DNA from: an archaeon
GTDB lineage: Archaea > Nanobdellota > Nanobdellia > Woesearchaeales > ARS49
Assembly (NCBI GenBank): GCA_020051845.1
Contig: JAGVQG010000017.1
Span: 1 to 58,574, forward strand
DNA: 58,574 nt
Reading direction: 5' to 3'
Shown piece after piece: positions 6,568-45,972 of this stretch (position 1 is the first letter of the stretch; every line of letters begins with the position of its first letter). Position numbers and translations under genes: made by a program. The notes under the pieces were generated by a model. It was not told the DNA's origin. It was given only the letters and a program-made list of their open reading frames with translations, and searched no databases.

Positions 6568-7476
6568 TCACTGGCTTTTCCTGACCCTGATCGCGAAGCG
6601 CAAGACAGGACGCTCGTTGATGCCTGGCAATGCATTACCAATCCTGACCTCATAGGTCGCGACAGCGCCACCATCAACGGCCACGACCTGCGAAACCATG
6701 CCCAAGCCAAGGCTCTTGAGGCAGCTCACCGGCTCGATGTCACCATCGCACTTCCGTATCTCTTCAAGACCTTTCCTCACGGTGTCTGCCGTCGAAAGGA
6801 TGTCATAGACAGAGACGTTGATCGGATGCCTGAAATCGGGCCGCAGAGCGATCTGACCACAGGCATAAACCTGCTGTTCGACACGGGCAGGATTCCAGTC
6901 AAAGACAAACTCGGTCGCTTTGCTCAAGCCTGTGGCAAGGATGTTGATAGGCACGTATTCCCGTTGGGTCCTGCACTTGACAGTCAGAAGAACCGGCCGC
7001 GCAGTGTGACCCTCGATGATCGTCAAGTTCGGTTCGACTGCGCTGTAATAGACGAAATCGCGAGGCCTCTTGTCTCCAAGTATGTACGGGTTCTTCGCCA
7101 GTTGCCGTGTGAAGTGGTCATACTCCATGAAAGAAGAGAGGTCTTGAGAGATGTTCTCCTGCGATGGAAAGCACTCAACCCCGCGATCATACCACAGCGT
7201 CGTCGTGCCAAACTTACCACAGGGCGCCTCGTACCAACCACCATTCCTGAAAAGGTCCATTACCGCATCATAGGACGCGTGCTTGCTCGCGACATCGAAG
7301 TACTGCAAAGCCACCTCGCGGTCGTGCAATCCCTGCAACGCCTCTATCGAACTCTGACCCATGACCAGCTGCTCTTTTCCGACCACTGCCTGGGTGTTGT
7401 TCCAGAGACGCAGCATTATGATCACCAGACCGAGCACGCCAAGAACGAAAGTATACATGAACGCCTTCCTGTTCAT
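6568..7476 (-). CDS. prepilin-like N-terminus protein, 302 aa, no known domain
   Basis: The track start is GTG. The ATG at 7474-7476 is preceded by GGAGGTG and forms an ATGA overlap with the upstream stop. N-terminus MNRKA/FMYTFVLGVLGLVIIML. Confidence 0.65.
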   Translation of the reverse strand: MNRKAFMYTFVLGVLGLVIIMLRLWNNTQAVVGKEQLVMGQSSIEALQGLHDREVALQYFDVASKHASYDAVMDLFRNGGWYEAPCGKFGTTTLWYDRGVECFPSQENISQDLSSFMEYDHFTRQLAKNPYILGDKRPRDFVYYSAVEPNLTIIEGHTARPVLLTVKCRTQREYVPINILATGLSKATEFVFDWNPARVEQQVYACGQIALRPDFRHPINVSVYDILSTADTVRKGLEEIRKCDGDIEPVSCLKSLGLGMVSQVVAVDGGAVATYEVRIGNALPGINERPVLRFAIRVRKSQ

Positions 7477-8195
7477 GATGCACCTCCGCACTTCGCCGAG
7501 TCAACAAGCACATCCCTCGAGAAAGACGCATCATCTACAAAACATAGCGATGCGACACTTGAGACTTCCGAGACGCAGACACGGGCATCACCCTCGCGCT
7601 TTGTGACGCACGGCAGACCCTCCTCGCTCCAGACGCCTGATTGGCCTGAAGGAGACCTGCTCCAATAAACCCAAACCCTACCATCAGCGGTCACGTACTG
7701 CCAGCCGCCCTTCTTGGCGAACTCGCGCACGACATGATCATACTGGTCCTGGGGCGCGCTTCGCACCTCGACCCTGATCTTCGAACCTGAGGATGAAGGC
7801 AGACGAACGCTGTCAAGGACAGGATGGGAATCCTCGGCCATCATCACCTTCCAACCACCATAATCTATGGACAACGTGTTGGCCTTGGCAGATGCCGCCA
7901 TGCGCTGCCGCAGGGCAAGCTGTATGGACGGGAAGACCTTGTCGAATTCGGACTCGACATCGCCCAATGATATCAGAAACGCAAGATCGACATCCTGTCC
8001 CTCGTAGACCACCGGCGTGCGCAGGACGGCAAGAGCCTGTTGACGTTCAGAAATCCCTGTCAACGCCTCCATCTGGATGGTCTGCAGCCTCGGACCAGAG
8101 CAAGACTTGAAGAAAATCACGGCGAACAATATCAAGATGAACATGGCTATCCACGACCAGAATTCAGCTATGGACCAAAGCGCGCCGCGTTTCAT
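7473..8195 (-). CDS. prepilin-like N-terminus protein, 240 aa
   Basis: MKRG/ALWSIAEFWSWIAMFILILFAVIFF. ATGA overlap with the upstream gene. Confidence 0.65.
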   Translation of the reverse strand: MKRGALWSIAEFWSWIAMFILILFAVIFFKSCSGPRLQTIQMEALTGISERQQALAVLRTPVVYEGQDVDLAFLISLGDVESEFDKVFPSIQLALRQRMAASAKANTLSIDYGGWKVMMAEDSHPVLDSVRLPSSSGSKIRVEVRSAPQDQYDHVVREFAKKGGWQYVTADGRVWVYWSRSPSGQSGVWSEEGLPCVTKREGDARVCVSEVSSVASLCFVDDASFSRDVLVDSAKCGGAS

Positions 8196-8704
8196 CGTGC
8201 AGGAGTCACCAGCTCAATGTTCAATATGCCTGGATGATGACCGCCATCCGTCTTTATCGTCACAGGATGGCTGAAGGAGACGGACAACGCCGATCCTGAA
8301 CCGGACTTCGTGGTCAATGGCTTATACAGATCATAGCCATATTTGTTCCAGTAAATCTTGCATGAATGCTTCGTACATGTACCTTCATCGACAAGATCGG
8401 TGAGCACGAACCTCGCGCCCGTGAACTTGTTGTCAGGATGGCTCAACATGGCATCAAGAGTCTTGTCGTTGAACTTGGAGATATCCACGGACAACGGATC
8501 CGACCTGCCTGCGTCCACCACATGGAAACCGCCGGGAGAGTAGATGAAAAGCTGGTCATAGACCGACATCTGGGCAAGGCGCGTGTCAGAAGTCTGCCTG
8601 ACGATCCCCGCGACAAGCACGACCACAAGAACTATGACTATGGCGGTCATCACAGAGTACCTTATCAGCTCAAGCGCGTTGAAAGCCACGGCGCGCCTAT
8701 CCAT
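8192..8704 (-). CDS. prepilin-like N-terminus protein, 170 aa
   Basis: The track start is GTG; I use the ATG at 8702-8704. N-terminus MDRRA/VAFNALELIRYSVMTAIVIVLVVVLV. Confidence 0.6.
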   Translation of the reverse strand: MDRRAVAFNALELIRYSVMTAIVIVLVVVLVAGIVRQTSDTRLAQMSVYDQLFIYSPGGFHVVDAGRSDPLSVDISKFNDKTLDAMLSHPDNKFTGARFVLTDLVDEGTCTKHSCKIYWNKYGYDLYKPLTTKSGSGSALSVSFSHPVTIKTDGGHHPGILNIELVTPAR

Positions 8705-9671
8705 AGTAAACACCCATGCCCGAGTATATCGCCTTGGTGAGAGCGGCCGTGTTGGACAACAGCTGCTGCTTTGCGCCTAGCTGCCCCACAACGATCTCGA
8801 CGCCAGGCCTGTCCGTGGGCAACAGCGTCGGCATCGACGTCGGAGCGACGGCAGAAGCATCGACAAAACCGGTCTCCTGCTGCAATGCATTGACCAATGC
8901 GCAGCCGAGCTTCTCGCTCTTGCGGCGCACATCCTCTGAAGCCTTCGGATTGTAGTATGCGACTATCCTGTTGCGGTCCTCCATCAAAGGATCCACACGC
9001 AATGAGACTACGATACCATCGCCTTTTGCGATGACCTGCTTGCGTTCATCCACCGTGCCTTTCGCTATCTGGCTCTGCGACATCAATGCCTTGAGCCTTC
9101 CAGCGACATCCTCAAGCACGCTCCGCACCACGATGCCGTCCTTCGAGCGATCGTCTGCCGCGATGTCGATGACGTGCCTACCTGCCAAGCCGTTTGGATC
9201 GGCGGTCGGAACAAACTGACAACGCATGATACTCGGGCGGAAATCAGGAGACTTGCGCAGGGTCACGCTGTTTCCCTCTTTCACCACATGGACCAAGCCT
9301 GTTGCGGGCGAAATGCTGAAGGGCTGCAGCGACGTGTCTGCCGGCGTGAAAATCCAGTACCTGCTCGGACCCTTGAGAGTGTTGGCAGTGACCTCGATGA
9401 TGTTCTTGCCGCCCGTGAAAGAGAACTCGGTCTCGCCGTATTTGTTGGCGAAATCCGCCATGATCATGCTGTCCGGACTCTCGGCGACAACAGTGGCGAG
9501 AAGACCGAAATGACCAGGATAGAACTGCTTGGCGAGAAGACCGCCACGGACGGCGCTGTCGATGTAACCGATCAGCAAAACCGTCAACAGCAGACCGCCG
9601 ACGGCCTGCGCCAGCAACCAAATGGTCTCTTCAGAGAGCATCGCTCCACGACGACCCCACCTTCTTTTCAT
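8697..9671 (-). CDS. prepilin-like N-terminus protein, 324 aa
   Basis: MKRRWGRRG/AMLSEETIWLLAQAVGGLLLTVLLIG. A TATA lies about 26 nt upstream of the ATG. Confidence 0.65.
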   Translation of the reverse strand: MKRRWGRRGAMLSEETIWLLAQAVGGLLLTVLLIGYIDSAVRGGLLAKQFYPGHFGLLATVVAESPDSMIMADFANKYGETEFSFTGGKNIIEVTANTLKGPSRYWIFTPADTSLQPFSISPATGLVHVVKEGNSVTLRKSPDFRPSIMRCQFVPTADPNGLAGRHVIDIAADDRSKDGIVVRSVLEDVAGRLKALMSQSQIAKGTVDERKQVIAKGDGIVVSLRVDPLMEDRNRIVAYYNPKASEDVRRKSEKLGCALVNALQQETGFVDASAVAPTSMPTLLPTDRPGVEIVVGQLGAKQQLLSNTAALTKAIYSGMGVYYG

Positions 9672-9693
9672 GGATCGATAACTGTCAAGCGCC

Positions 9694-9701
9694 TTTAAAA
9701 A
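9694..9701 (-). promoter_or_regulatory. internal TATA box (TTTTTAAA on minus strand) splitting the 14-gene array
   Basis: It sits in the only real gap of the array (9672-9713), about 26 nt upstream of the 9671 ATG. Confidence 0.45.
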
Positions 9702-9713
9702 TGCAACGGTCGA

Positions 9714-10463
9714 TTAATTGATAGGAGCGGCTGGTTGTGCCGGCTGTGCCGGCGTGGTCGGAGCAGGCGCAGGAGCGACCGGTGTGTTCGGAACGGCTGT
9801 AGGAACAACTGACGCGACCGGCGCCTTGGCCACAACTTTCCTTGACGGCGCCTTGCTGTCGAACACTATCTCCCTGTCCTTCGAGTCGCTCGCGTAAACA
9901 TACATCACGCTCGGAGTCATCGTCGACCAACCTATGCCGCAATCACCATAGACAAGAAGCTCGTTGCCCGTATAGCCTGCAGGTTTCGCCGGGCTTAGGA
10001 AGTTGTCGTTCGCCAGGCCGCGGACGCTCACGCGCTTGATGTTGTTGAAAGACTTGCACGTCGGATAACTTCCCTTGCACTGGCTGCCCTCGACGCACAG
10101 ACATAGGCACGCCCTGCCAGGAAGGCACTCGCCAGGCATGCTCGGACGCTCGACGACATCACCCTTGCACTTGTCCTGCACGCCTCCGCCGTTGGTGGCA
10201 TCGAAACCCACAAGATAGAAACCATCCTCTATGTAGAAATCAGGGAGCGTCCTCGAATCAGGCAACGACGCGACATCGGCACGGTCGAACTCGTCGAGGA
10301 TCAGCATCATCGTGCCCACAGAGATGCGCGTGCCCTGGCCGGCGCTGTCGACGGCGCGCAACGGACCCGAGAAAGTGAAGATGATGTAAAGGACGAGCAG
10401 GGTCATCATTATGCCGATGATCGCCTGGATGAGCTCACCCAAAGAGAGTTCTTCCTCTGCCAT
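9714..10463 (-). CDS. N-terminally anchored protein, 249 aa, Cys-containing ectodomain and Pro/Ala-rich C-terminus
   Basis: I use the internal ATG at 10461-10463, directly after the upstream stop. N-terminus MAEEELSLG/ELIQAIIGIMMTLLVLYIIFTF is atypical (no basic residue). Ends PVAPAPAPTTPAQPAQPAAPIN. Confidence 0.6.
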   Translation of the reverse strand: MAEEELSLGELIQAIIGIMMTLLVLYIIFTFSGPLRAVDSAGQGTRISVGTMMLILDEFDRADVASLPDSRTLPDFYIEDGFYLVGFDATNGGGVQDKCKGDVVERPSMPGECLPGRACLCLCVEGSQCKGSYPTCKSFNNIKRVSVRGLANDNFLSPAKPAGYTGNELLVYGDCGIGWSTMTPSVMYVYASDSKDREIVFDSKAPSRKVVAKAPVASVVPTAVPNTPVAPAPAPTTPAQPAQPAAPIN

Positions 10464-10464
10464 G

Positions 10465-10737
10465 TCACTTCTTCGGCACGCAGCACCAGGTCGCCACGTC
10501 ATCGCTGCCGATCTTCTTCGTGCAACCAAGACCTAGAAGCCCGCGCTCAGTGTTATCGTCGCAACCAGTTTCCCTGCAAACACCGCCCTGTCCTGCACAT
10601 GTGCCTGACACGCCTGCCTGCTCGCCAGGCTTGACGATGTATTTGTACGTGAGGAAAAGAAGGACAGCAAGCACCACAAGGGCCAGCGCCATAACCATAA
10701 TAGTGTTTATCGTGTCACCATCACCGCGCTTGTTCAT
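10465..10737 (-). CDS. 6-Cys mini-pilin-like protein, 90 aa, ends WCCVPKK
   Basis: MNKRG/DGDTINTIMVMALALVVLAVLLFL followed by C-x6-C-x4-C-x12-C-x12-CC. ATGA overlap with the upstream paralogue. Confidence 0.65.
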   Translation of the reverse strand: MNKRGDGDTINTIMVMALALVVLAVLLFLTYKYIVKPGEQAGVSGTCAGQGGVCRETGCDDNTERGLLGLGCTKKIGSDDVATWCCVPKK

Positions 10738-11027
10738 TGGCTCACCACACAGCAATAGAGTTCGTTGTTTTTATCATCTGCATTTAGATTCGGGTCGCCA
10801 GGACAGCCGAACTTGAAAGACTGACCGCTCTTGCACGAGCCGCCATCAATATCATTCTTGCTCATGCAGGTCTGGCCTGGTTTGGTCTCGCAATCACCAA
10901 GCTTCGCGGCGTTCTCACCGCCCTTGAGGATGTATTTGTACGCGAGGAAAAGAAGTATCGCGAGCAGCACCAGCGCGATGATCATCTTCACCAGCGTCTC
11001 CTGCGTCATACCTCTTTTCGATTTCAT
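10734..11027 (-). CDS. 6-Cys mini-pilin-like protein, 97 aa, ends YCCVVSQ
   Basis: MKSKRG/MTQETLVKMIIALVLLAILLFL followed by C-x7-C-x10-C-x9-C-x16-CC. Confidence 0.65.
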   Translation of the reverse strand: MKSKRGMTQETLVKMIIALVLLAILLFLAYKYILKGGENAAKLGDCETKPGQTCMSKNDIDGGSCKSGQSFKFGCPGDPNLNADDKNNELYCCVVSQ

Positions 11028-11060
11028 AGCATCACAACATCGCACGAATCTATATAAGGA

Positions 11061-11738
11061 TTACGTCGGATTGCCGTACTTGAACTTGAGCACGGCGTTG
11101 TTCGAGTCGATTGGAAGCTTCGTGGTACTATTGATGTACAACAGCGGGTCCAGTGGCTGGATATCGATCTGATACCAGCCAGGACCGGGCAACTTGCTGA
11201 TGTTCATGATTTTATCGTTCATCGAGCAAACGCCGCCATCGCAATATCTCGGGTACTCCTGGAAAACACACTCTTTCACGCGCGCGAACTGGAACCACTT
11301 GTCGACGGATTCCGGGCAATACCTTACCCTGACCTGGGGAGGCACTTGCTTATCCGGCGAACGGGACACATACTGATCCCAATAGATGACGATCGGCAAC
11401 ACTTCCACGACATCGAAGTCAACCTCGGCCAATCTCATCATGTTCGTACTCGCCTGGGTCGTCTGTTCGGCTGGATCGACCGCCTTTGTATTCACCTTAT
11501 TCCCACCGGCCATCACATTGTATATCGAAACGAAACCTTTCCGGTTAGGAGTCGCCGGTGCTGTCATGGGAGGGGTCGGATCCGCCTGCTTGAGATGCAG
11601 CCTTGTCGCCACATCATCCGAGGTGCTCTTGGCCATCGCGTACAGCTTGTTATTCGAGAAAATGGCGATCAGCACAAGGATCACCACTACGATAACGCCG
11701 ACCAAAAGAGCCTGGTGTTCAATGCCTCGCTTGTCCAT
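11061..11738 (-). CDS. prepilin-like N-terminus protein, 225 aa
   Basis: The track start is TTG; I use the ATG at 11736-11738. N-terminus MDKRG/IEHQALLVGVIVVVILVLIAIF. Confidence 0.62.
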   Translation of the reverse strand: MDKRGIEHQALLVGVIVVVILVLIAIFSNNKLYAMAKSTSDDVATRLHLKQADPTPPMTAPATPNRKGFVSIYNVMAGGNKVNTKAVDPAEQTTQASTNMMRLAEVDFDVVEVLPIVIYWDQYVSRSPDKQVPPQVRVRYCPESVDKWFQFARVKECVFQEYPRYCDGGVCSMNDKIMNISKLPGPGWYQIDIQPLDPLLYINSTTKLPIDSNNAVLKFKYGNPT

Positions 11739-11875
11739 CAAACACCCATGGCGCCCCTGATCGCGTCAAGGACATCGGGAAACTTACCAGTCACCATACC
11801 TATTATCGCAAGAACAACCAAAAGCACAACAACAAAAAGAATCACGTATCCAAGGTTGTCAGTAATCCAGGTCAT
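11738..11875 (-). CDS. unlisted 45-aa single-TM micro-protein
   Basis: Hand translation gives MTWITDNLGYVILFVVVLLVVLAIIGMVTGKFPDVLDAIRGAMGV. GGAG lies about 6 nt upstream. Its stop overlaps the next ATG (TGATG). It falls below the ORF-track length cutoff. Confidence 0.4.
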   Translation of the reverse strand: MTWITDNLGYVILFVVVLLVVLAIIGMVTGKFPDVLDAIRGAMGV

Positions 11876-11917
11876 GGTCTTCTCCAGTCAGGTTTTGTAT
11901 ATAAATTTATTTTAAAT

Positions 11918-12775
11918 TCAGGTGACGAATTGCAAAGGACCTGCCCTTCCCTCAAGGCGGCTGCACTTCAGCGCAGGTATATCCTCATAGGGCCACAGGA
12001 CCGTGCCTGCGACGAAATTCTGGTTGTAAAAGTGAGGTGAGATGAACATGTTGGTCGTGAATCCTGCTCCGGCTCCTGCGCCGGCCGCTATCACCAAGAA
12101 AGGAGTCGCTGTGCCACCGGTTACGAGGACCGCGCCCGCCGCAAGCGCTGTGCCGCCGGCAGTGATCAGATATCCTGTCCACTTGTCCACGTTCTTCTCC
12201 GCGACGAACATCACGGCGAGCGGTCTGGACGTGTCCAGAGTGTCCTGGCTCGCAATAGGGCTCCTTCGATATTCATCGACGACCTGAGGCGTGCCTTTGG
12301 TGTTGAAAAGATATTCATAATAGGTAGCATCCTTTCCCTTGGCGGTCGTCTTAAGCAGATATTCCCCGAAATCCTCCAGTTTGGCAGGCTTCGTGAACTC
12401 AATGCGAGAGCAGACGACACAATAGGAACCTGTCTCTATGTCGAACAGCTTCACCTTGCCCTCGCCGAACTGCTCCCAGCAAGATGCCATCTCGCTCGCC
12501 ACCAACGCCTTCTGCTTCTCAGGATCGTCCTCGTCAACCTTCATCTGCTTGGTCGTGCAACGCAGGTCGACGACTGTGGTGGGATTGATCATGCCGATAA
12601 GGGACTGGCTGCGCACGCTGGAGACACACTGCTCCTTCTCGCCGACGCTGGTCGAGATCTTCCCTGTCTGCGAGAGGAATATCAGAAGGACCACGCCCGC
12701 GACAAGGATAAGAACTATCCCGAGGATCGTCCCCCACATCGCCTCTTCAGCTTTCTTCGCCATTTTGTCAACCAT
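11918..12775 (-). CDS. 285-aa envelope protein, paralogue of 12782..13639, with an extra Gly/Ala-rich C-terminal TM
   Basis: N-terminus MVDKMAKKA/EEAMWGTILGIVLILVAGVVLLIFL. Shares the block EMAxCW..GEGK...F......CV.C......F..FG.YL.(T).....TY..YL with its neighbour. Confidence 0.65.
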   Translation of the reverse strand: MVDKMAKKAEEAMWGTILGIVLILVAGVVLLIFLSQTGKISTSVGEKEQCVSSVRSQSLIGMINPTTVVDLRCTTKQMKVDEDDPEKQKALVASEMASCWEQFGEGKVKLFDIETGSYCVVCSRIEFTKPAKLEDFGEYLLKTTAKGKDATYYEYLFNTKGTPQVVDEYRRSPIASQDTLDTSRPLAVMFVAEKNVDKWTGYLITAGGTALAAGAVLVTGGTATPFLVIAAGAGAGAGFTTNMFISPHFYNQNFVAGTVLWPYEDIPALKCSRLEGRAGPLQFVT

Positions 12776-12781
12776 CGATAC

Positions 12782-13639
12782 TCAATATAACGTGTCGCAA
12801 GGCGGCCTCAGGTCTGATGGCCAACCATAAACCGCCGCGTTCGGCCTGTCCTTGTAAAACACACTAGTCAGCAGATCAGAGTCACCCTGCAGATATGTTA
12901 TGACCATATCATCCTTGAAAAGATAGATGTCATGGGCGTTCACATTCTCCTCGCGCCCGCCCTGGGTGCGCTCCTCGCCGACGATGTCCTTGTATACATA
13001 GGACATTATCACCGAATCATAGGAGCTGAACTTGGCCTCGAACTTCTCGCGCTCAGGACGCAGATAATCGAAATAGGTCCTACCATCATCCATCTTGGTG
13101 TCCTTCAAGTATTGGCCGAAGCCGTTGAAACCGACACCACCCACCTTCTTGAGGAAGCTCGGGTCGAAGTGCACGACGGCGCAGGTCACGCAGCGATTGC
13201 CGCTGTAGAGCGTGCGCGTCTTGAAAGGATTCTTCTTACCCTCACCCCAAACGCGCCAGCAGATAGCCATCTCCTGCGCCATGGAATATTTGGCCATCTC
13301 CATCAACACCTCGTTCTCAGAGGGCTTCTGGTTGCCCGACTTCTGCAGACGCCTCGCAGCAGTGCCTGTCGACAGGTATTTCTCGGGGGACTTCGTCCTT
13401 ATGCTGTTGCGGTAGACGCCATCATCCTTGATGATGATCATCTGCGTCGGGCACTGGATCGTGACAAGATTGCCTATGGCCGCTGTGCTGGCGGCATCGA
13501 CGGTCGCCTCGCAGGCCTGGATGTCGGTGCCTTTCTTGACCGAAGCCTCCAGGTTGTATTGCCAGGCGAACAATGCTATGGCTGTGACTGCCAAGATGAT
13601 GAGCCCGATAAGGAAAGGATGGACATAGCCCTGCCTCAT
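12782..13639 (-). CDS. 285-aa envelope protein, paralogue of 11918..12775
   Basis: MRQG/YVHPFLIGLIILAVTAIALFA. Shares the Cys/Trp block described for its neighbour. Confidence 0.65.
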   Translation of the reverse strand: MRQGYVHPFLIGLIILAVTAIALFAWQYNLEASVKKGTDIQACEATVDAASTAAIGNLVTIQCPTQMIIIKDDGVYRNSIRTKSPEKYLSTGTAARRLQKSGNQKPSENEVLMEMAKYSMAQEMAICWRVWGEGKKNPFKTRTLYSGNRCVTCAVVHFDPSFLKKVGGVGFNGFGQYLKDTKMDDGRTYFDYLRPEREKFEAKFSSYDSVIMSYVYKDIVGEERTQGGREENVNAHDIYLFKDDMVITYLQGDSDLLTSVFYKDRPNAAVYGWPSDLRPPCDTLY

Positions 13640-13773
13640 CCTGCCACCAACATACCCCTGTTTATCATCATGTAGAACAGGATAATCAGAGCCACGAGCA
13701 GGACCAGCGTGACTATCATGGCGAAAGTCGAACGGGTGATCGCTTTCCTAGACTTGGATACAGCAGATGCCAT
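13636..13773 (-). CDS. possible 45-aa single-TM micro-protein
   Basis: Internal ATG of track ORF 13636..13869 gives MASAVSKSRKA/ITRSTFAMIVTLVLLVALIILFYMMINRGMLVAG. It overlaps the upstream gene by 26 nt and has an ATGA overlap with the downstream gene. Confidence 0.35.
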   Translation of the reverse strand: MASAVSKSRKAITRSTFAMIVTLVLLVALIILFYMMINRGMLVAG

Positions 13774-13999
13774 CTTCAATAGGTGCCTTTCTTCCATCAT
13801 CGCAATTCGGCGATGGGACTGTCGCCGAGTTAGCATTCGGGCAGGGGTTTCCGCGCTTGACGCACTCACCCTTGCACTGGCTAAGGCCCTGCGTGAACAC
13901 CTTGCCGCGCCCCAAGAAGATGATCGTCAGGACCAGCAGCACAATCAAGGCTATGGCTATGACAACGATGACATTAATCGACATATCCCCTTTCCTCAT
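13748..13999 (-). CDS. 6-Cys mini-pilin-like protein, 83 aa, ends ICCIQV
   Basis: MRKG/DMSINVIVVIAIALIVLLVLTIIFLG followed by C-x3-C-x6-C-x12-C-x12-CC. ATGA overlap with the upstream paralogue. Confidence 0.68.
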   Translation of the reverse strand: MRKGDMSINVIVVIAIALIVLLVLTIIFLGRGKVFTQGLSQCKGECVKRGNPCPNANSATVPSPNCDDGRKAPIEDGICCIQV

Positions 14000-14250
14000 T
14001 TGGGAAGCGCACAGCAGGTCTGTGACGCGCCGCCTGAAGTCTTAGGGCACACCCAGATGTTGTACTCGCCGATGCCTGCCGGACACGCGCCGACTACGCA
14101 CTGACCGCCCTGGCCCTCGCAATCCAGGCTCTTCTGTGAGAAGACGCCTGCTCTGCCAAGGAAAATCACCGACAGAACGACAAGCACAAGCAGCGCGATG
14201 GCTGCCACGATGATCACATTGATGGAGATGCCTTGTCCTTTGGAATTCAT
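13996..14250 (-). CDS. 6-Cys mini-pilin-like protein, 84 aa, ends TCCALPK; first gene of the array
   Basis: MNSKG/QGISINVIIVAAIALLVLVVLSVIFLG followed by C-x6-C-x4-C-x11-C-x10-CC. AGAGGTG SD 8 nt upstream. Confidence 0.7.
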   Translation of the reverse strand: MNSKGQGISINVIIVAAIALLVLVVLSVIFLGRAGVFSQKSLDCEGQGGQCVVGACPAGIGEYNIWVCPKTSGGASQTCCALPK

Positions 14251-14292: not shown

Positions 14293-14300
14293 ATATATAA
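14293..14300 (-). promoter_or_regulatory. TATA box (TTATATAT on minus strand) for the pilin-like array
   Basis: About 46 nt upstream of the 14250 ATG, leaving a short SD-containing leader. Confidence 0.5.
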
Positions 14301-14325: not shown

Positions 14326-14802
14326 TCACGACGAGCCAGGCGCAACCACATCGACAAGCAAGGGGTCGCTGAGGAAAGCCTCCCGCTTGATATCGTCTAT
14401 GACGAAGAAGACCTGCTTTGACTTGATGTCGAACTGGCGCTCGGTCTTGTCCATGAAATCCTCAAGATCGTGCAGATCACGGAATACACAGTCGGCACAG
14501 AAGTCGAAGCCGTTGTTTATCTTGAACAATGAATTCACAGGCAAAGCCTTCGAAAGGTAGTCCCTCAAAGCATCCCTGGACTTGGGATCAGAACGCATCA
14601 GGATGGTGGCTCTCGTGTGGAAACCCAACTTCGAGAAGTCAAGCAGCGCCGTGTTCCTGACGATAAAAGTGCCGGCATAAATCTTCAGCCGGTCATAGAT
14701 CGTCGAGATGGGCACTCGCGCAGACTTGCTCATCGCGGTCAGACCCATCCTCGAGTTCTTCCGCAAATGACTCAACAGCACCAAATCACGTTTGTTTACC
14801 AT
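14326..14802 (-). CDS. Lrp/AsnC-family transcriptional regulator
   Basis: N-terminal HTH (DLVLLSHLRKNSRMGLTAMSKSARVPISTIYDRLK) plus a C-terminal RAM-like domain. GGAGGT SD. Confidence 0.8.
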   Translation of the reverse strand: MVNKRDLVLLSHLRKNSRMGLTAMSKSARVPISTIYDRLKIYAGTFIVRNTALLDFSKLGFHTRATILMRSDPKSRDALRDYLSKALPVNSLFKINNGFDFCADCVFRDLHDLEDFMDKTERQFDIKSKQVFFVIDDIKREAFLSDPLLVDVVAPGSS

Positions 14803-14953: not shown

Positions 14954-15868
14954 ATGCAAAGAAGCGTCATACGGCTAGCAGGCAAGACATTCGTCGTGAG
15001 CCTACCAAGCAAATGGTGCAAGGCAAACGGCGTGACCAAGGGAGCCTTGCTGGAAGTCACACCCCATGGAAGGACACTACTAGTGGGAAGCCAAGGACCC
15101 AGCCATGACAAGCTGAAGCTGGCCTACGACGGCCACGCTGACGGCATCAAACCCCTCCTCACATCAGCGTACAAACGAGGATATGACGAGATCGAACTCG
15201 GCATCGGACCGGGAATGATGCGGCAGATCCAACGCACCATCGATGAAGAACTGGTGGGATTCGAGATAATCAACCAGGGCAAAAGCCACTGCACGATCAG
15301 GACCGTGACGGACGAACGCGAGGAAGAATACGACCAGATAATGCAACGCTGCGTCCACATACTGGGCGACATGCTCGAAAGCGGGCTTTCTGCGCTCAAA
15401 TCCAAGAAATGGGCTGAACTCGAGGAATCGGCGCTCTCCGAGCGGACGCTCGACAAGCTCACAAACTTCGCAAAACGCGTGCTCAACAAGAAATTCAGCG
15501 GCGACGCAGATTTCGCTTTCAACTACGGAATCCTGCGCGGAATAGAACAGACATCGGACGTGCTCGAAAACACATATGTCACGTGGGCAAAAGCAGGCCA
15601 CGCGACACACGACGAGATCGTCTTGTTCGAGGATGTATGCAAGTACGCGAAGACACAACTCGCGCTGATCCAATCACGCTCGCTGACGCACCCTTCATCC
15701 GGCAAGAAAATACTACTGATGCAGGCAGCGGTGCTGATCGAGAAAGGCGGACACGGAGCTATCATCGGCCATCATCTAAGCGAAGCGATAAACGCGCTCG
15801 ACAACATGGCCGGCCAAGTCATAGGTCTCAGCCTAGGGCAGACCGCAACGAGCAAAGATAATCCTTAG
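14954..15868 (+). CDS. AbrB/SpoVT-domain plus PhoU-like helical-domain regulator
   Basis: N-terminus IRLAGKTFVVSLPSKWCKANGVTKGALLEV is a swapped-hairpin AbrB-type motif. The rest is helical with a PhoU-like pattern. The upstream region is AT-rich and multi-TATA. Confidence 0.6.
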   Translation: MQRSVIRLAGKTFVVSLPSKWCKANGVTKGALLEVTPHGRTLLVGSQGPSHDKLKLAYDGHADGIKPLLTSAYKRGYDEIELGIGPGMMRQIQRTIDEELVGFEIINQGKSHCTIRTVTDEREEEYDQIMQRCVHILGDMLESGLSALKSKKWAELEESALSERTLDKLTNFAKRVLNKKFSGDADFAFNYGILRGIEQTSDVLENTYVTWAKAGHATHDEIVLFEDVCKYAKTQLALIQSRSLTHPSSGKKILLMQAAVLIEKGGHGAIIGHHLSEAINALDNMAGQVIGLSLGQTATSKDNP

Positions 15869-18773
15869 CCAACCCCTTCTCATTAGGCAATCTATCGACG
15901 ACAGACAACACGTTGTCGATGAAACCACGGACGACAGGCCCCCTGCTCGGCTGATCGGCCGCATAGGCCGCGAATGAAGCCGCGCGAAACGGAGCGACGC
16001 CGATCATATCCTGCACGAGAGAGCGCGACTCTCCAGATGCCAATGGCTTGCCCGACTCCTTGCGACCGGCGACATAGGCGCCGACGCAACGATCAAGCAG
16101 GATCTCAAGAAGAGGCAATGCACAGGCCTCGCGCTGGAAAATCAGCTTGCACAACTCGTTCGGCGGATGGGTGCTGCCATGCGGCTGGAAGTCGATAGCG
16201 ACGACGCCATCCTTAGTCCTTATCCAGTTCTCAGGATGCGGATCCTTCTTGAAAACAGCGGCGTACTGAATGTCCGCTCCCTTCGCCATGCGAGACAATA
16301 CCTCAAGCCCGGACAGCGATGAAAGCGCGGCAAGCCTTGACGCCCGTTGCGGAGAGAGCGAATAGTCATCGTTGTCCTTGCGTCGGGGCTCGAGAAGACC
16401 GTGTATCATCCCAAGAGCGCGGGCTGCTTCGACGTATGAATCGACCTCGACACATCCTGACAAAGGGCTGCCTGACTCGAAAAGCAACGGAAGGACGTGA
16501 GCGCCGGCATGTTCTCGGACCGACGACAGAACAACAGAGGTCTTCACACCGGCAGCGGACAGCCTATCGTGGGCATGACGCGTCAGATGTTCCTCGGCGT
16601 CAAGACCCTGTTTGTCTCCACGCTTGAGAAGCACGGTCGACTTCAAGAATTCACTGCCTCCAAGACGATGGACATCATAATCACCTATCCGCTCCCAGAC
16701 CGGATTTCTTTCAAGCGCGAGCTTGATCGCGTCGCGCAGGGTATCGCCGGCCATCGAATCATAGCCTGCCGCGGAAAGCAACAGACCCTGCATTATGCCG
16801 AGCTCAGGACGCTCCTTTGGGATCGGGCCGGAAAGGATCTTCCTGGACAACAGCGGAACCCGTGAATAGAATCCACATTGCAGCGCGCTGAACTGGGCTT
16901 CGATCATCTCGCCCAAATCCGCACGCCTCAAAGCCTTGCGGGAATCAAAATATGAGTGTTGAAGCAGAAGCATACGCTGTGGAAGACGCAACGCATCGAA
17001 AGGATCAAAGAGGGCATGATTGTCATCAGGATGCCGCATCGCCTCCTTCAACGACAAAGCAGCGACATCATAATCCTTGTCAAAAATCCTCAATCTGGCC
17101 TCGCACAGGGCGGCAGAACGCGTCGATGGATGCATGATATCGCGGAGAGTCTCGAGCTCGCCCTTCTTCAGACCGACACACATCAAGCCCTTCGCCGAAA
17201 GACCCAACAAACCAAGATATCGCCTGAATCTCGGCGACCGGACAGACCGCGCGTTCGTCAAAATATGGTCTGCAGCGGCGACGTAGGTCATAGATATCAT
17301 GGCAAGGCCGACTGAAAAGGAATACAAAGCAGGACCGTGCAAAGACTTCAACATCGCGCGATAATAGCCGCCATGCATCGAGTCGATCAAATACGAAGCG
17401 GCAACACAGGAGGCGGTCGCGACTGCAAGAGGGTGCTCGACAGCGACGTCGAAAACACCCTTCTCTCCAGAATCCTTCAAATCACGCAAGTGCCTATCGC
17501 GACGCCTGTAGAGCGAGAACAACAACCAAGGCAGGAATGGGACCAACGAAAGACCACCGGCCAAGGCGACCTGAAGGTTGGACATGACTGTTTTCCTGTC
17601 GAATCCAGACCCGCCATCAGGGACATAACAATCGAAACCGCCATCCCTGATCCTCACACAGTCAAGACGAGCGAGCATGGATGCGAACTTATCACTATAG
17701 ATGTACAACCCATCAGAACCCCAACCGCAAAGCAGATCCAAACCGCCGGGATTCTCGAAAGCAGGACGCGTGGAGCGGGCGGCACAATCGAATAACGAGA
17801 CATCGACGCTTTTCATGAGATCGATGGCTTCGTTCGTGGACACCCTCTTCCCGGAAACATCAGGGATTGCCTGGAACGCAAGGATATCGTCGACAGGAGA
17901 CCAGGCCATCGAAACACGAACATCTCCTGAACCCAAGACCATCTCATCCAAAGAACGCAGATCGGTGAGGCGCAACATCCTCTCCTTCTGGTTTGCGCTG
18001 GAGACTGTCGCAAGATATCTACCTGACGGTGAAAGCTCCGAGCGCTCGACCGTGCCAAATGCATTTTCCGTGGTCCGAGCGCGTTTCGACTCCCTGTCGA
18101 CAACAGCTATCCTGCCGAGACCATGCAACACGATCGAATCAAGGGTCAAAGATGGATCGCGCCATTGGTCTCCTTCGACCTCGACAGCATCCATCGCCTG
18201 TTTTTCATCGGCGTCATAAACACGCACAGAGGTCTTGCCTTCTTTTTCGACACAAAAAGGCAATTCTTTGCCTGACCATCGACCGACAGAGACAGCGGCT
18301 GCAGAAAAGACAGACTCCCTGGTCTTGGCGTTGACCATATTCAATCGACCGCTCTTGCCATCGTGAACAGCGACAAAAGCGGCATCACGAGAGATGAACG
18401 CAGAAGGCGACTCTGCGCAGGCAATCTCGACAGAATCATTTGGTTTCCTACCCACATCGACCAGGCAGACAACACCGCCATTCTTGACAACCAAATAATC
18501 CGAGGACACATCCAGGATTTTGTCAGCTGCGCACCTCCTTGTGCCATGGCGCCTGCCGGCATCGATCTCTTCGACACTGCCACCTGCAACACGGAAATAC
18601 GCCCCTTTGACAACATCATGCCTGCTGCCTGTGAACTCGTAGGGATACGGCCATGAACAATCCTTTTGTGAAGGTTGCTTAAGGTTGCAGATCAGATAAA
18701 CACCTGCGCAAAGAGCGCCTGCGCCGACGGCGAAAGAAACAGTCTCCATCAAAGAACGCAATCCCCTACCCAT
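15828..18773 (-). CDS. 981-aa membrane protein: N-terminal anchor, beta-propeller-like ectodomain, TM cluster, helical region, C-terminal protein-kinase-like (APH/PKL) domain
   Basis: TolB/WD-like strands (SPSGRYLATVSS, MAWSPVDDILAF). TM candidates LQVALAGGLSLVPFLPWLLFSLY and ALYSFSVGLAMISMTYVAAA. C-terminal FKKDPHPENWIRTKDGVVAIDF resembles the H.D.HP.N ... IDF catalytic/Mg loops of APH-like kinases. Confidence 0.6.
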   Translation of the reverse strand: MGRGLRSLMETVSFAVGAGALCAGVYLICNLKQPSQKDCSWPYPYEFTGSRHDVVKGAYFRVAGGSVEEIDAGRRHGTRRCAADKILDVSSDYLVVKNGGVVCLVDVGRKPNDSVEIACAESPSAFISRDAAFVAVHDGKSGRLNMVNAKTRESVFSAAAVSVGRWSGKELPFCVEKEGKTSVRVYDADEKQAMDAVEVEGDQWRDPSLTLDSIVLHGLGRIAVVDRESKRARTTENAFGTVERSELSPSGRYLATVSSANQKERMLRLTDLRSLDEMVLGSGDVRVSMAWSPVDDILAFQAIPDVSGKRVSTNEAIDLMKSVDVSLFDCAARSTRPAFENPGGLDLLCGWGSDGLYIYSDKFASMLARLDCVRIRDGGFDCYVPDGGSGFDRKTVMSNLQVALAGGLSLVPFLPWLLFSLYRRRDRHLRDLKDSGEKGVFDVAVEHPLAVATASCVAASYLIDSMHGGYYRAMLKSLHGPALYSFSVGLAMISMTYVAAADHILTNARSVRSPRFRRYLGLLGLSAKGLMCVGLKKGELETLRDIMHPSTRSAALCEARLRIFDKDYDVAALSLKEAMRHPDDNHALFDPFDALRLPQRMLLLQHSYFDSRKALRRADLGEMIEAQFSALQCGFYSRVPLLSRKILSGPIPKERPELGIMQGLLLSAAGYDSMAGDTLRDAIKLALERNPVWERIGDYDVHRLGGSEFLKSTVLLKRGDKQGLDAEEHLTRHAHDRLSAAGVKTSVVLSSVREHAGAHVLPLLFESGSPLSGCVEVDSYVEAARALGMIHGLLEPRRKDNDDYSLSPQRASRLAALSSLSGLEVLSRMAKGADIQYAAVFKKDPHPENWIRTKDGVVAIDFQPHGSTHPPNELCKLIFQREACALPLLEILLDRCVGAYVAGRKESGKPLASGESRSLVQDMIGVAPFRAASFAAYAADQPSRGPVVRGFIDNVLSVVDRLPNEKGLAKDYLCSLRSALG

Positions 18774-18796
18774 AGCTGATGCCTGCTGAATGGGCT

Positions 18797-18804
18797 CTTA
18801 AAAG
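18797..18804 (-). promoter_or_regulatory. TATA-like box (CTTTTAAG on minus strand) upstream of the kinase-like gene
   Basis: About 27 nt upstream of the 18773 ATG. Confidence 0.4.
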
Positions 18805-18838
18805 GGTTATGAAGCCCTGTTATAGTGATCCCTTGCCC

Positions 18839-19363
18839 TTATTGGCAAAGCTTCAGAACAAGAGTCAGTGTCTGACCGCCTATCGGACGAGGACGCGTTA
18901 TCTTCTGGAAACCTGCCGTGCACCCCCCAGGAGGGTTCTTGAACTCGATCTTCTGGTCGTTGATCTTCTCCTCTATCTCAAATACATACTTTCGGCCCCA
19001 GGTGTTGAGCGTGCTGTTGAGCATGTAGCCTATGGTCGCGTTCGCGTAAGCGCAACTGTCGCCGGCAGGGATGACAATGGTCGCGACACCTGCTTTCGTG
19101 ACCTCGATCTCGTCGCACTGGAAGGAAGCGCCTGTCGCACAGTCCTTGAGCATAACCGAAAGCGGCACGCCCTTGCAGACCATCGTAGTCTCAAGCATCG
19201 TGTCGAGAAGGTTCGCTCCGAGCTGCACGTCACGCGCGTTCTGCACAGGATTCTCCTGCACGTTGAAGAAAAAGAAACGCAATGCGAGAAGGATGCCCAT
19301 CAGCACGATGACCATTATTATCGCAAGCCCGAGAAGCTCCATCTGTGCGCGCCTATTTCGCAT
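18839..19363 (-). CDS. prepilin-like protein, 174 aa
   Basis: MRNRRA/QMELLGLAIIMVIVLMGILLAL. 11-nt overlap with the upstream gene. Confidence 0.68.
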   Translation of the reverse strand: MRNRRAQMELLGLAIIMVIVLMGILLALRFFFFNVQENPVQNARDVQLGANLLDTMLETTMVCKGVPLSVMLKDCATGASFQCDEIEVTKAGVATIVIPAGDSCAYANATIGYMLNSTLNTWGRKYVFEIEEKINDQKIEFKNPPGGCTAGFQKITRPRPIGGQTLTLVLKLCQ

Positions 19364-19880
19364 ATTGAGTCACCTCAATGTAGCCGAAAGCGTAGGTGCC
19401 TTCTGTAGACTGGCTGCCTGTGGCATTGAAAATAAGTATGGGAACCTGCATCTTGCTCGACTCCTTGTATTTAGGCAATGTATTGTTGTAGAGCGTGACC
19501 TGCCTGACGGCTGTCGGTGGAACGGCATTACGAGCGTAGATCTGCGTGACAGTGACCGTACTCCAACCGAAAACAGGGAAGTAAAGCGCGGAGATCGCGG
19601 AAGACTGAGGATTACTGTCATCAAGGACCGACGCGAACGCGCTCAACTTGCTCGCATCTATGCAAGCCTCCTCCTGGATGCCGGCTATGGCGCAATCCAG
19701 CTCTGGAAGGAATGAAATCTTCTGCGCCAGGCCGAACATGTGAAGCTGGCTCGCGCGCGCCAACTCCCTGTTCACCGACGTCTTCTGGATGCCGAAATAG
19801 AAGTTCACGCCGAAGATAAGCAGGAAGGCGAACACCACCATCACGGCTATCGACTCGAAGAGCTTTATCTGGGCTTTCAT
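19353..19880 (-). CDS. prepilin-like protein, 175 aa
   Basis: MKA/QIKLFESIAVMVVFAFLLIFGV. Confidence 0.68.
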   Translation of the reverse strand: MKAQIKLFESIAVMVVFAFLLIFGVNFYFGIQKTSVNRELARASQLHMFGLAQKISFLPELDCAIAGIQEEACIDASKLSAFASVLDDSNPQSSAISALYFPVFGWSTVTVTQIYARNAVPPTAVRQVTLYNNTLPKYKESSKMQVPILIFNATGSQSTEGTYAFGYIEVTQYAK

Positions 19881-19881
19881 C

Positions 19882-20967
19882 TCAGTACACCGTCGGACAA
19901 CTCAGACGCAACAACTTCTCATTGGAGGCGGCAAGGCTGTCCGCCGCTATCTGGAGTATATTGAAGTCAGGGGAGCTTTCGTCGACCACGGTCTTATGGG
20001 CGAACTTGATGATCGTCGGCAAAGGACCGTCATTCGCAGCGTCAAAACCACCCTCCAGATCGTTCGTCTTGGTGATGACCGTGTACTCTGCACCACACGC
20101 GGGGTTTTTTGTGGTGTCTTTCAGTTCGACAGCCCTTTGCTGATACACCCTGCCCACACCCTCAAGACGCTTGAACGCCGTGATTGCATTGCACGAGTAA
20201 TCCTCCATGTCCTGCGCCATTATGGCGCCGAAAAGCATCTCGTCTCCGAAAAACGCAGTCATTATCGTCTGACCACTGTCGTCAACCGCGTTCTCCTTCT
20301 CGATCATGTTCTTGTTCCTCTTGTAGAACGTGAGATCGTTGGTGGAAGCGCTGACAACCACCACGTGGACATCGACGTCCTTGAACTTTGAGTTCATGAC
20401 GGTCTGGATGGCAGGCGCATCATTGCCGAGCGTCACGAAAACCACACGGCTGTATTTCTCGTTGGTCGCGTCCTTGACATCACTGATCTGCTCGAAACGC
20501 ACATCGGCAGGCATCGCCGCCTTTATCCGGTCAAGCACAGGATCGTTGCCGACCAGGTAAATCTTGACGAAATCATTTGTGATGAAGAGGAAGTTGGTGG
20601 CGCGGAAAGGCGCCTTCCAGTCAAGGGTCCAGAGCTTCGCGTCAGCGCCCTCGACGGTGTATGGCGAAAATATGGAACGATCGTTGAACGGGATGCTGAA
20701 GCGGCCGAACTTTATCGAACAAGAACAATCAGCACAATCGAAGTTAAGACCCAGCTTAGGCAAAGGCACTGTCTGGATCGTGTCCTTGGATTGGAGCGCG
20801 GCTGTCGTTATCGCGTCGAAGTCGTTCTGCAGACGTATCGCCGCCTTGTCCGCGGAAAGCTGGCGCTGAGTGTTGGCGACCTTGAAGAAAAGAGCGAGTA
20901 TGACAGCACCTGCTATGAGGACGAAGATCCAGTTGAACTGGACATCAAGCTGTGCCTTGCGCTTCAT
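19882..20967 (-). CDS. prepilin-like protein, about 361 aa
   Basis: [28 protein letters not shown]. The ATG at 20965-20967 forms an ATGA overlap with the upstream stop. An alternative ATG lies 6 nt upstream at 20973. Confidence 0.68.
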   Translation of the reverse strand: MKRKAQLDVQFNWIFVLIAGAVILALFFKVANTQRQLSADKAAIRLQNDFDAITTAALQSKDTIQTVPLPKLGLNFDCADCSCSIKFGRFSIPFNDRSIFSPYTVEGADAKLWTLDWKAPFRATNFLFITNDFVKIYLVGNDPVLDRIKAAMPADVRFEQISDVKDATNEKYSRVVFVTLGNDAPAIQTVMNSKFKDVDVHVVVVSASTNDLTFYKRNKNMIEKENAVDDSGQTIMTAFFGDEMLFGAIMAQDMEDYSCNAITAFKRLEGVGRVYQQRAVELKDTTKNPACGAEYTVITKTNDLEGGFDAANDGPLPTIIKFAHKTVVDESSPDFNILQIAADSLAASNEKLLRLSCPTVY

Positions 20968-21509
20968 TGCCATGGCGATACGCGCACCGCATTACCAAGC
21001 CCCTCAAGCCGCAATACCACCGTGCCTTGGTCGACAGGCTCGCAGAACCAGCGCTGGTCGCTCTGCTTTTCCGGATCGCTCGAAGCCTGGATGTCAGGAA
21101 GCAGTATGTTCTTCGGAGCGCTTGGCTCGAAGAAGACATTGTCGCCGCCGGTCTCATACACCTCATAGATCAGAGAAGCGTTCTCGGGCAGGCCTGCCAG
21201 CTCGGACATCTCATTGAATTGCGGCTTGCCCTTGACATCGACTTGCGGGTCCTTGTTGCCTGTGACGATGCAGATCTTCTTGTACCTCATCGGCAGCCCT
21301 GCGAGCTCGACCTTCTTCACAGAACCATAGCTCAGACTGATGCTCTTGACCTCGGACTTGAGCGTGCTCGTGAAATCGATGAACGCGACCTCGTTGCCGC
21401 GTTGACTGATCCCCTGGATCGCCTTGTATCCATAACCGAGGATCAGCACGAAGATTATACCCGCCAGGATCAGCACGAAAACCTGCCCTATGATCTGCGC
21501 TTTCCTCAT
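20964..21509 (-). CDS. prepilin-like protein, 181 aa
   Basis: [32 protein letters not shown] overlap with the stop of the giant gene. Confidence 0.68.
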
Positions 21510-44909: not shown

Positions 44910-44934
44910 GAAATGTTTATATAAAAAGGCGATA

Positions 44935-45882: not shown

Positions 45883-45972
45883 CAAGTGCAGGGCTTTGAA
45901 CCCGCACGATTTCTTTGTAATGACGAATTCCATAGCGAAACATTTAAAAGAGACTTTGCTCTTGGTCGTCTT

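Follow-up and report, generated by a model that had tools for sequence, protein, structure and literature searches.

A conserved Woesearchaeota gene cluster whose products begin like archaeal prepilins: candidate subunits of a type IV filament-like surface structure

What is built from fourteen adjacent genes whose products nearly all begin in the manner of archaeal prepilins? The question is posed by a stretch of 58,574 nucleotides (nt) from a member of the Woesearchaeales (contig JAGVQG010000017.1 of assembly GCA_020051845.1), referred to here as the window, in which an array of minus-strand genes occupies positions 6568-14250. One answer, which we hold to be moderately probable from the sequences, is a surface structure akin to type IV filaments (a pilus or pseudopilus) for contact with a host: the array would supply its subunits, and genes elsewhere the machinery that assembles it. 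On sequence comparison the whole locus is an extensive gene cluster, conserved in the Woesearchaeota, a DPANN lineage, and not described before; a literature search found no paper on the array, on the family of its small pilins or on Woesearchaeota hydrolases that carry prepilin-type leaders.

All 14 open reading frames (ORFs) of the original prediction are present where it placed them, with every N-terminal string that it quoted. They are given below with lengths in amino acids (aa); a slash marks the putative cleavage point.

Gene 1, 13996..14250, minus strand: 84 aa, MNSKG/QGISINVIIVAAIALLVLVVL..., small pilin-like protein with a six-cysteine head; candidate major subunit.
Gene 2, 13748..13999, minus strand: 83 aa, MRKG/DMSINVIVV..., six cysteines; paralogue of gene 1, with an ATGA overlap with it.
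Gene 3, 13636..13800, minus strand: about 54 aa, ...SRKA/ITRSTFAMIVTLVLLVAL, helix only; start uncertain, up to 13869.
Gene 4, 12782..13639, minus strand: 285 aa, MRQG/YVHPFLIGLIIL..., six cysteines; paralogue of gene 5 (CW..[FW]GEGK...C..C motif).
Gene 5, 11918..12775, minus strand: 281-285 aa, MAKKA/EEAMWGTILGIVL..., six cysteines; Gly/Ala-rich hydrophobic region near the C-terminus.
Gene 6, 11738..11875, minus strand: 45 aa, helix only, DNLG/YVILFVVVLL...; motif non-canonical in the window lineage.
Gene 7, 11061..11741, minus strand: 225 aa, MDKRG/IEHQALLVGVIVVV..., four cysteines.
Gene 8, 10734..11027, minus strand: 97 aa, MKSKRG/MTQETLVKMIIAL..., small six-cysteine pilin-like paralogue; TATA-like box upstream.
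Gene 9, 10465..10737, minus strand: 90 aa, MNKRG/DGDTINTIMVMALAL..., small six-cysteine pilin-like paralogue.
Gene 10, 9714..10463, minus strand: 249 aa, MAEEELSLGELIQAIIG..., eight cysteines; no basic motif in the window lineage.
Gene 11, 8697..9671, minus strand: 324 aa, MKRRWGRRG/AMLSEETIWLL...; C-terminal domain (about 150-324) a degenerate Amidase_3 (N-acetylmuramoyl-L-alanine amidase) fold.
Gene 12, 8192..8704, minus strand: 170 aa, MDRRA/VAFNALELIRYSVMTAIVIV...
Gene 13, 7473..8195, minus strand: 240 aa, MKRG/ALWSIAEFWSWIAMFILIL...
Gene 14, 6568..7476, minus strand: 302 aa, MNRKA/FMYTFVLGVLGL...; bare two-module scaffold of a hydrolase-carrying family.

Each of the 14 proteins has one strong N-terminal hydrophobic segment; gene 5 alone adds a weak, Gly/Ala-rich one (residues 195-245). 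Ahead of the helix stands [KR][GA] in 11 of the 14, as a prepilin processing site calls for (a charged residue at -2, then G, A or S at -1), and RQG in one more; the pair singled out earlier as less canonical, genes 10 (9714..10463) and 6 (11738..11875, with DNLG), do lack [KR][GA]. When each N-region was shuffled with its composition preserved, 11 or more positives arose in 12 of 20000 trials (P=0.0006). Twelve of the 14 proteins have an even number of ectodomain cysteines, which fits disulfide bonding outside the cell; there are none in genes 3 and 6 and five in gene 13.

A stronger argument than the shuffling, as we read the alignments, is position-specific conservation among the relatives of gene 1, which with genes 2, 8 and 9 forms a set of four paralogues. 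A profile search returned at least 976 relatives of 82-90 aa, all from Woesearchaeota or Nanoarchaeota and none with a Pfam domain or a name that says anything of function. Position 4 is K or R, and position 5 G or A, in all 102 of 102 aligned relatives, and position 6 is Q in 83 of the 102; the family N-terminus reads M-x-K-[KR]-[GA]-Q and runs into a nearly invariant helix. Identity is 84% over that helix (residues 9-33) as against 48% over the head, which is the typical pilin pattern, as pilin helices form the filament core. Six cysteines are found in 117 of 120 family members. The AlphaFold2 model of gene 1 consists of a long helix (5-41) and a small beta-rich knot or head, at a predicted local distance difference test (pLDDT) score of 79: the N-terminal helix and beta domain for which such models were to be inspected. 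Compared with the sequences of the Protein Data Bank (PDB), the family profile gave chance matches only.

The six-cysteine head bears some resemblance to beta-defensins, and resemblance is all that we claim. Both have six cysteines, the first two spacings C-x6-C-x4-C and a terminal CC; in beta-defensins the later spacings are shorter, and the heads in the window are joined to a membrane helix. Beta-defensins are the top Foldseek matches at a non-significant E of 0.26, and Pfam Defensin_beta (PF00711) scores 16 bits against a cut-off of 21: three weak signals, then, in the same direction, and no claim of homology.

The array is not peculiar to one genome. At least 51 other species of Woesearchaeota or Nanoarchaeota share its gene order, and a scan of one genome per GTDB species placed a relative of gene 1 in 123 species. 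Complete or near-complete chromosomes with the array include OY970338.1, JBAYIU010000001.1, CAZJXP010000001.1 and PCXY01000005.1. In 51 loci with sufficient sequence, a median of 11 ORFs separates the small pilin gene from the terminal gene, and a median of nine pass the class III rule (G/A at -1, K/R at -2), for a total of 443 of 557 (about 80%); ORFs were called on the plus strand only, since in sequence rich in guanine and cytosine (GC) calling on both strands lets antisense ORFs displace real genes. The commonest +1 residue across these arrays is Q (105 of 443). Even the two non-canonical genes have canonical counterparts: in a distant relative the array position of gene 6 carries KKG/Q and that of gene 10 MARA/Q, the latter correspondence being positional only. 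Conservation of motif and helix in more than 100 gene 1 homologues, and array-wide in 51 other species, much strengthens the proposal that these N-termini resemble class III prepilin signals.

Nor does the locus end with gene 1. On a 6.7-kb contig (L001) genes 4-14 are repeated in order, and the same organization is found in L004/L005 (a 969-kb contig), L007, L010/L011 and L012: the array is followed by RPA and YdjM and preceded by giant secreted proteins and four or five pilin-like genes, usually with an AsnC-type regulator in between. The synteny of array, companion cluster, AsnC-like gene and RPA holds in unrelated samples. The companion cluster runs straight into the array in L003 and L010, where no regulator separates the two, and positions 15828-32913 of the window are therefore taken as part of the same system, of which the 14-gene array is, on this reading of gene order, only half. 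The rest comprises the following.

Companion cluster, 15828..32913, minus strand: six more class III-like genes and giant secreted proteins.
Class III-like gene, 27048-28442: MKQG/Q.
Class III-like gene, 20964-21509: MRKA/Q.
Class III-like gene, 19882-20973: KRKA/Q.
Class III-like gene, 19353-19880: MKA/Q.
Class III-like gene, 18839-19363: RRA/Q.
Class III-like gene, 15828-18773.
Giant secreted protein, 21506-27076: 1856 aa, bacterial TSP3 repeats.
Giant secreted protein, 28439-29983.
Giant secreted protein, 29959-32913.

Within the window array a +1 Q is found in gene 1 only; five genes of the companion cluster have it as well. The gene at 18839-19363 (minus strand) encodes a 174-aa pilin-like protein (MRNRRAQ followed by MELLGLAIIMV...) with orthologues in L003, L004, L007 and L010; it is masked by a longer plus-strand ORF, 18779-19408, which is probably spurious. 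The nearest relatives of the array proteins come from metagenome-assembled genomes (MAGs) labelled Woesearchaeota or Nanoarchaeota. Many third-party annotation (TPA) MAG records with the locus are titled 'uncultured Methanosarcinales archaeon', and one 'Thermoplasmatota' (L015, L018, L020-L022 and others); these are probably mislabelled or mis-binned.

What, then, might the structure touch? The ectodomains were at first thought to match no recognizable family, a statement now superseded at two positions. The C-terminal domain of the gene 11 AlphaFold2 model (pLDDT about 80-88) is matched by Foldseek to the N-acetylmuramoyl-L-alanine amidase structures 4rn7, 4lq6 and 7agm (E 3.6e-5 to 2.5e-4, probability 1.0), and 7 of 26 gene 11 family members from related loci match Pfam Amidase_3 (PF01520; best E 3.2e-18); one of the 26 also bears a muramidase domain. 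Window gene 11 itself has no Pfam match. Where apparently active relatives have IDPGHG, SLHTG and EIGN, it has IDIAADD, SLRVD and VVGQ (an Amidase_3 protein that looks active is encoded at L064:16010-17068): the His of DPGHG, the His of SxH and the Glu of ExG, presumably the zinc-ligand and catalytic residues of the Amidase_3 family, are lost, and no His or Glu is conserved in the close family. Lacking these three residues, gene 11 is a degenerate, probably non-catalytic Amidase_3 homologue.

Gene 14, at the end of the array, belongs to a family that carries hydrolases of several kinds. An exhaustive phmmer search gave 94 relatives, most aligned only over query residues 1-120, which correspond to a shared N-terminal module of an anchor and about 100 residues with conserved G, D, GG, CG, W and C.P. 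Nearly all Pfam domains in 91 of these relatives are peptidoglycan hydrolases: M23 (11), SLT (9), M15 (3), CHAP (3), Amidase_2 (2) and VanY (2), with single cases of M74, NlpC/P60, 3D and glucosaminidase. The few exceptions are fn3, an Ig-like domain, a TSP3 repeat and two uncharacterized domains. A relative with M23 and SLT that looks active is encoded at L010:15866-19246. A species-level sample of 53 proteins (51 terminal genes and two other array genes) has SLT in 8, M23 in 7, Amidase_2 in 4, M15_4 in 2, glucosaminidase in 2, and others; the family bears peptidoglycan hydrolase domains in about one-third of related species. The assignment also draws on synteny in 61 loci. The hydrolase domains begin after the shared module, from residue 189 onward in the proteins mapped, and reach about 1100 aa; our reading of the sequences and the family consensus is that they are insertions between two conserved scaffold modules. 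The window copy has no hydrolase or other Pfam domain, its 302 aa being just enough for the two scaffold modules.

Other array members in relatives can carry hydrolases too: 3D, M23 and Amidase_2 domains stand behind the leaders KKKA/Q, KKG/L and NKKG/D (L012:12761-14251, L082:11984-12898 and L080:17799-19328, respectively). Word-indexed searches returned four relatives for the gene 4/5 family and about ten for that of gene 11, and the families became visible only through exhaustive search and local hidden Markov model searches over loci. Profile searches of the gene 11 and gene 14 families against PDB sequences gave chance matches only. 'Large lytic murein transglycosylases' have been reported in Woesearchaeota (AR20 and Lake A MAGs; PMC9723730, PMC12352652) and probably correspond to those gene 14 relatives that bear hydrolase domains.

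With these pieces the favored filament reading can be put as a sequence of steps. Each protein would be inserted through Sec by its N-terminal helix; a prepilin peptidase of FlaK/EppA type would cut the short basic leader after the G or A; and a FlaI-type ATPase with a FlaJ-type platform, encoded elsewhere in the genome, would assemble the subunits through their helices. The shaft would be made of the four small six-cysteine proteins (genes 1, 2, 8 and 9), possibly joined by those of the helix-only genes 3 and 6; minor, tip or base subunits would come from the larger array proteins. Together with the products of the adjacent cluster (more pilin-like genes and giant adhesin-like proteins), the structure would mediate contact with a partner cell. 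Domain content across the lineage ties it to peptidoglycan, through an Amidase_3 homologue at position 11 and a hydrolase carrier at position 14. As both positions appear catalytically empty in the window, the structure there probably binds or adheres rather than cuts, a suggestion that is frankly speculative.

To our knowledge, archaea of the Woesearchaeota group have no peptidoglycan of their own. Coupled hydrolases in such an organism point to bacterial targets, which agrees with earlier suggestions drawn from isolated 'murein transglycosylase' genes (PMC9723730, PMC12352652). A bolder version, which we put forward tentatively and hold to be rather less probable than not, supposes an order-wide pilus for breaching cell walls: a shaft of disulfide-knotted (defensin-like) pilins, with minor modular pilins that bear amidases, endopeptidases and lytic transglycosylases, would attach to bacterial rather than archaeal partners and open their walls. 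The window would then hold a derived version, its enzyme modules lost or inactivated in a switch from cutting to binding, or in adaptation to a host without peptidoglycan.

Several results weigh against a filament assembled from these genes, and those that concern machinery come first. The original prediction saw no ATPase, platform or prepilin peptidase in the window; family searches of the window proteins bear this out (no secretion ATPase, FlaJ/TadC platform or A24 peptidase), and the absence is also a conserved property of the locus, since in about 85 relatives none of these lies closer to the array than 10 kb. Nor does an ATPase, platform or peptidase appear in the precomputed Pfam annotation for five related contexts. 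Motif scans of 1.4 Mb of related loci for PilB/FlaI ATPases (Walker A plus GE[IVLM]R) and A24 peptidases (GxGD-K) were negative, as regular expressions run without a positive control that very divergent proteins could escape. When polytopic neighbors were clustered, only YdjM and the gene 5 family recurred. The 640-aa membrane protein at 42076-43998 was considered as a platform and rejected: it combines four N-terminal helices with an fn3 ectodomain, an arrangement unlike that of FlaJ. A groundwater study, moreover, reports type IV pilus components to be missing from DPANN genomes (10.1101/2020.05.14.094862).

Other published evidence bears on the same point from the opposite side. The genes flaI, flaJ and flaK are reported in most Woesearchaeota genomes and MAGs, and 'archaellin' genes are among the most highly expressed in the group (PMC5994134, PMC11606122); a 'flaB' is highly expressed in the Woesearchaeota of Lake Dziani Dzaha; a survey places the Epd-type 'system 1' in some DPANN (preprint 10.64898/2026.04.22.720090); and pilin genes apart from their ATPase and platform genes are documented in Haloferax and Methanococcus (PMC4371748, PMC4858521). 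As the lineage is reported to have flaI, flaJ and flaK, the missing local machinery is no evidence for an unknown assembly route.

The proteins themselves supply the remaining objections. The hydrophobic stretch does not always follow the G or A at once, as had been supposed: in about half of the array genes 2-10 partly polar residues, several of them polar or charged, intervene, and the canonical -2 charge is missing in three array genes. The class III rule is moderately specific, being passed by 5 of 12 other window proteins with an N-terminal helix outside both clusters, two clear non-pilins among them. No curated pilin, archaellin or class III model of Pfam or NCBIfam (PF04021, PF07790, TIGR02537 and others) matches any of the 14, with Pfam taken to E of 1 for ten array proteins and 0.1 for the other four and NCBIfam to E of 1 for seven; the sole trace of such a model is TIGR02537, at E 0.5, on the neighboring gene 20964-21509. 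The gene 11 ectodomain is modelled as an alpha/beta enzyme fold, with no pilin head. Gene 5 has a conserved Gly/Ala-rich hydrophobic region near its C-terminus, and its family is predicted to be polytopic in nine loci or species (L003, L013, L017, L023 and others); the extra segments would be hard to extract into a fiber and are atypical for a pilin. The gene 5 product possibly stays embedded in the membrane, where it could be a resident base component.

These last two proteins lead to the alternative that survives best. The class III leaders might be cleaved, as in the Sulfolobus bindosome, with no extended fiber made: an assembly anchored in the membrane, or a very short one of pseudopilus type, would present the ectodomains (amidase-like protein, hydrolase carrier, adhesins). 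Gene 11, with its Amidase_3 fold, is one of many members whose ectodomains are large and unlike those of pilins; the hydrolase modules of relatives reach about 1100 aa, and gene 5 looks permanently embedded. Class III signals on functional surface proteins are, besides, established in Sulfolobus (PMC4371748). Display does not explain the small six-cysteine proteins, which, in four copies with a near-invariant helix and a variable head, are shaft-like rather than displayed enzymes, nor the helix-only genes 3 and 6, which have nothing to display; overall we regard it as unlikely.

It is less likely again that the N-termini are never cut, the basic residues and G/A being a lineage-specific trait of type II membrane anchors in an envelope complex unrelated to type IV filaments. 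The lack of family-model matches, the absence of local machinery from every relative (about 85 species, within 10 kb of the array), the limited specificity of the class III rule, the polar spacers after G/A in many members and the one paper that finds DPANN without type IV pilus components (10.1101/2020.05.14.094862) would all be accommodated. Where only net charge matters, however, an invariant K/R at -2 and G/A at -1 with a dominant +1 Q in 102 homologues is unexpected; about 80% of the array genes of 51 species have the motif, the shuffling gave P=0.0006, and flaK, flaI and flaJ are reported in the lineage. A mobile module (a conjugation or type IV secretion-like apparatus, or an integrated virus, with hydrolases like the VirB1/PrgK-type enzymes) is very improbable and, as a candidate, was rejected as largely refuted: relatives of gene 14 do join an N-terminal anchor to M23, SLT, CHAP or amidase domains, an architecture that also occurs in the hydrolases of Gram-positive conjugation systems, but the locus keeps a fixed chromosomal position beside the housekeeping genes RPA and RadA across the order, its 1.4 Mb of flanks have no VirB4/VirD4-type or other secretion ATPase P-loop, no integrase or capsid family was found among the window proteins, and GC content is uniform across the window.

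How might the array be expressed? Genes overlap by ATGA or TGATG at 13996-13999, 13636-13639, 11738-11741, 10734-10737, 8192-8195 and 7473-7476, as first described. Two further features stand upstream of gene 1.

TATA-like box, 14294-14300, minus strand: 49-50 nt upstream of gene 1; a sequence pattern only.
Upstream neighbor, 14326..14802, minus strand: conserved; its positional counterparts in relatives are AsnC/Lrp-type regulators (PF01037 in L004, L005 and L007).

The window copy of 14326..14802 has no Pfam match. Similar boxes, again as sequence patterns only, lie at 12785-12790 (gene 5), 11898-11905 (gene 6), 11051-11057 (gene 8) and 9694-9699; those of genes 1, 5, 6 and 8 are 27-50 nt upstream. 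The box at 9694-9699, by which the array had been divided into two transcription units, is real; the division into two is not upheld, since boxes also precede genes 1, 5, 6 and 8 and up to five units are therefore possible. Scans for Rfam families and for tRNAs gave no match anywhere in the window.

The 3' end of gene 2 is also read, in a different frame, as part of gene 3 (stretch 13748-13869), the overlap being about 25 nt or more, and 53 nt with the ATG at 13800; the L007 orthologue of gene 3 likewise overlaps the gene upstream of it. The database calls for gene 8 (P0008, 91 aa, starting MTQETL; stretch 10734-11045) and gene 11 (P0128, 314 aa) start only after the basic leader, so that automated annotation has stripped the class III motif; conservation among orthologues favors the longer starts. 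For the 285-aa product of gene 5 the assembly index has no exact match, although entries encoded by the window occur among the protein-search matches. Elsewhere in the window a separate 168-aa class III-like gene (MSHSKRG/VNRLNVLLL) occupies 32994-33500, and a third surface cluster (40864-46932, plus strand) encodes a 403-aa protein with NKRA/QGGSAATVIGIITLLF, the 640-aa protein and three proteins with lipobox-like LLAGC, VTAC and VVGC. The window also encodes RadA, RPA, RFC, PAN, FEN-1, PheRS, RNase P p30 and a tRNA-splicing endonuclease, a set that marks it as archaeal.

Few uncultured archaea are as widespread as the Woesearchaeota. Of a genome of about 1-2 Mb the locus takes roughly 26 kb; its place on the chromosome is fixed throughout the order, and its commonest component has about 1000 unannotated relatives and no family model. 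Should the filament reading be correct, the 'large murein transglycosylases' cited for a predatory lifestyle would become parts of a prepilin-type apparatus, which would give contact with bacteria a concrete mechanism; the K[GA]Q-GISINVII pilin and the gene 14 scaffold would serve as markers for finding and imaging the cells; and, as standard gene calls and family models would be missing the leaders, statements that DPANN lack pili might in part be an annotation artefact.

Among known systems the closest is the Epd pili of Methanococcus maripaludis (system 1, or clade 1), whose pilins have the processing motif [KR][GA]Q, are cleaved by EppA and require the +1 Gln (PMC4371748). That motif recurs in most of the gene 1 relatives, and the array shares with Epd several small major-pilin paralogues and large adhesin-like proteins alongside; the Epd operon, too, has at least five larger minor pilins in one operon, and some pilin genes lie away from the machinery (PMC4371748, PMC4858521, preprint 10.64898/2026.04.22.720090). 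Numbers do not set the array apart: fourteen had been called far more than the usual set, which is overstated, as M. maripaludis has 16 FlaFind-positive proteins, H. volcanii 47, and the Epd cluster 11 genes (PMC4371748; preprint 10.64898/2026.04.22.720090); the unusual part is contiguity. Unlike the Epd locus, the window-type locus lacks the ATPase, the two TadC-like genes and EppA in each of about 85 species. It adds a six-cysteine head on the small pilins, peptidoglycan-hydrolase modules on some members and many +1 residues other than Q, and it belongs to no family model. Differing thus in composition and in family-model membership, the array is not classed as an Epd member.

The enzyme-like members have counterparts of another kind. 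The C-terminal domain of gene 11 shares its fold with the Amidase_3 peptidoglycan amidases (Rv3717, Ami1 and C. difficile 4rn7), and family members match PF01520; window gene 11 differs from them in lacking the metal and catalytic positions and in having a prepilin-like leader. The reports of Woesearchaeota transglycosylases treat these as isolated enzymes and mention neither a prepilin-like leader nor a surrounding array (PMC9723730, PMC12352652); the window copy has no enzyme domains. For the export of functional ectodomains behind prepilin-type leaders, the Sulfolobus bindosome is the nearest parallel: its sugar-binding proteins are assembled by Bas and, as here, presumably held at the surface. 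It differs in its proteins and lineage, has its own BasE/BasF pair of ATPase and membrane protein, and lacks small subunits of shaft type. In Streptococcus sanguinis, PilB and PilC are said to be modular type IV pilins, in which fusion of a pilin module to a functional domain gives the filament a new activity. Those pilins are bacterial and their modules adhesive or lectin-like, whereas the modules of the Woesearchaeota proteins are peptidoglycan hydrolases that appear to be set between two conserved scaffold modules.

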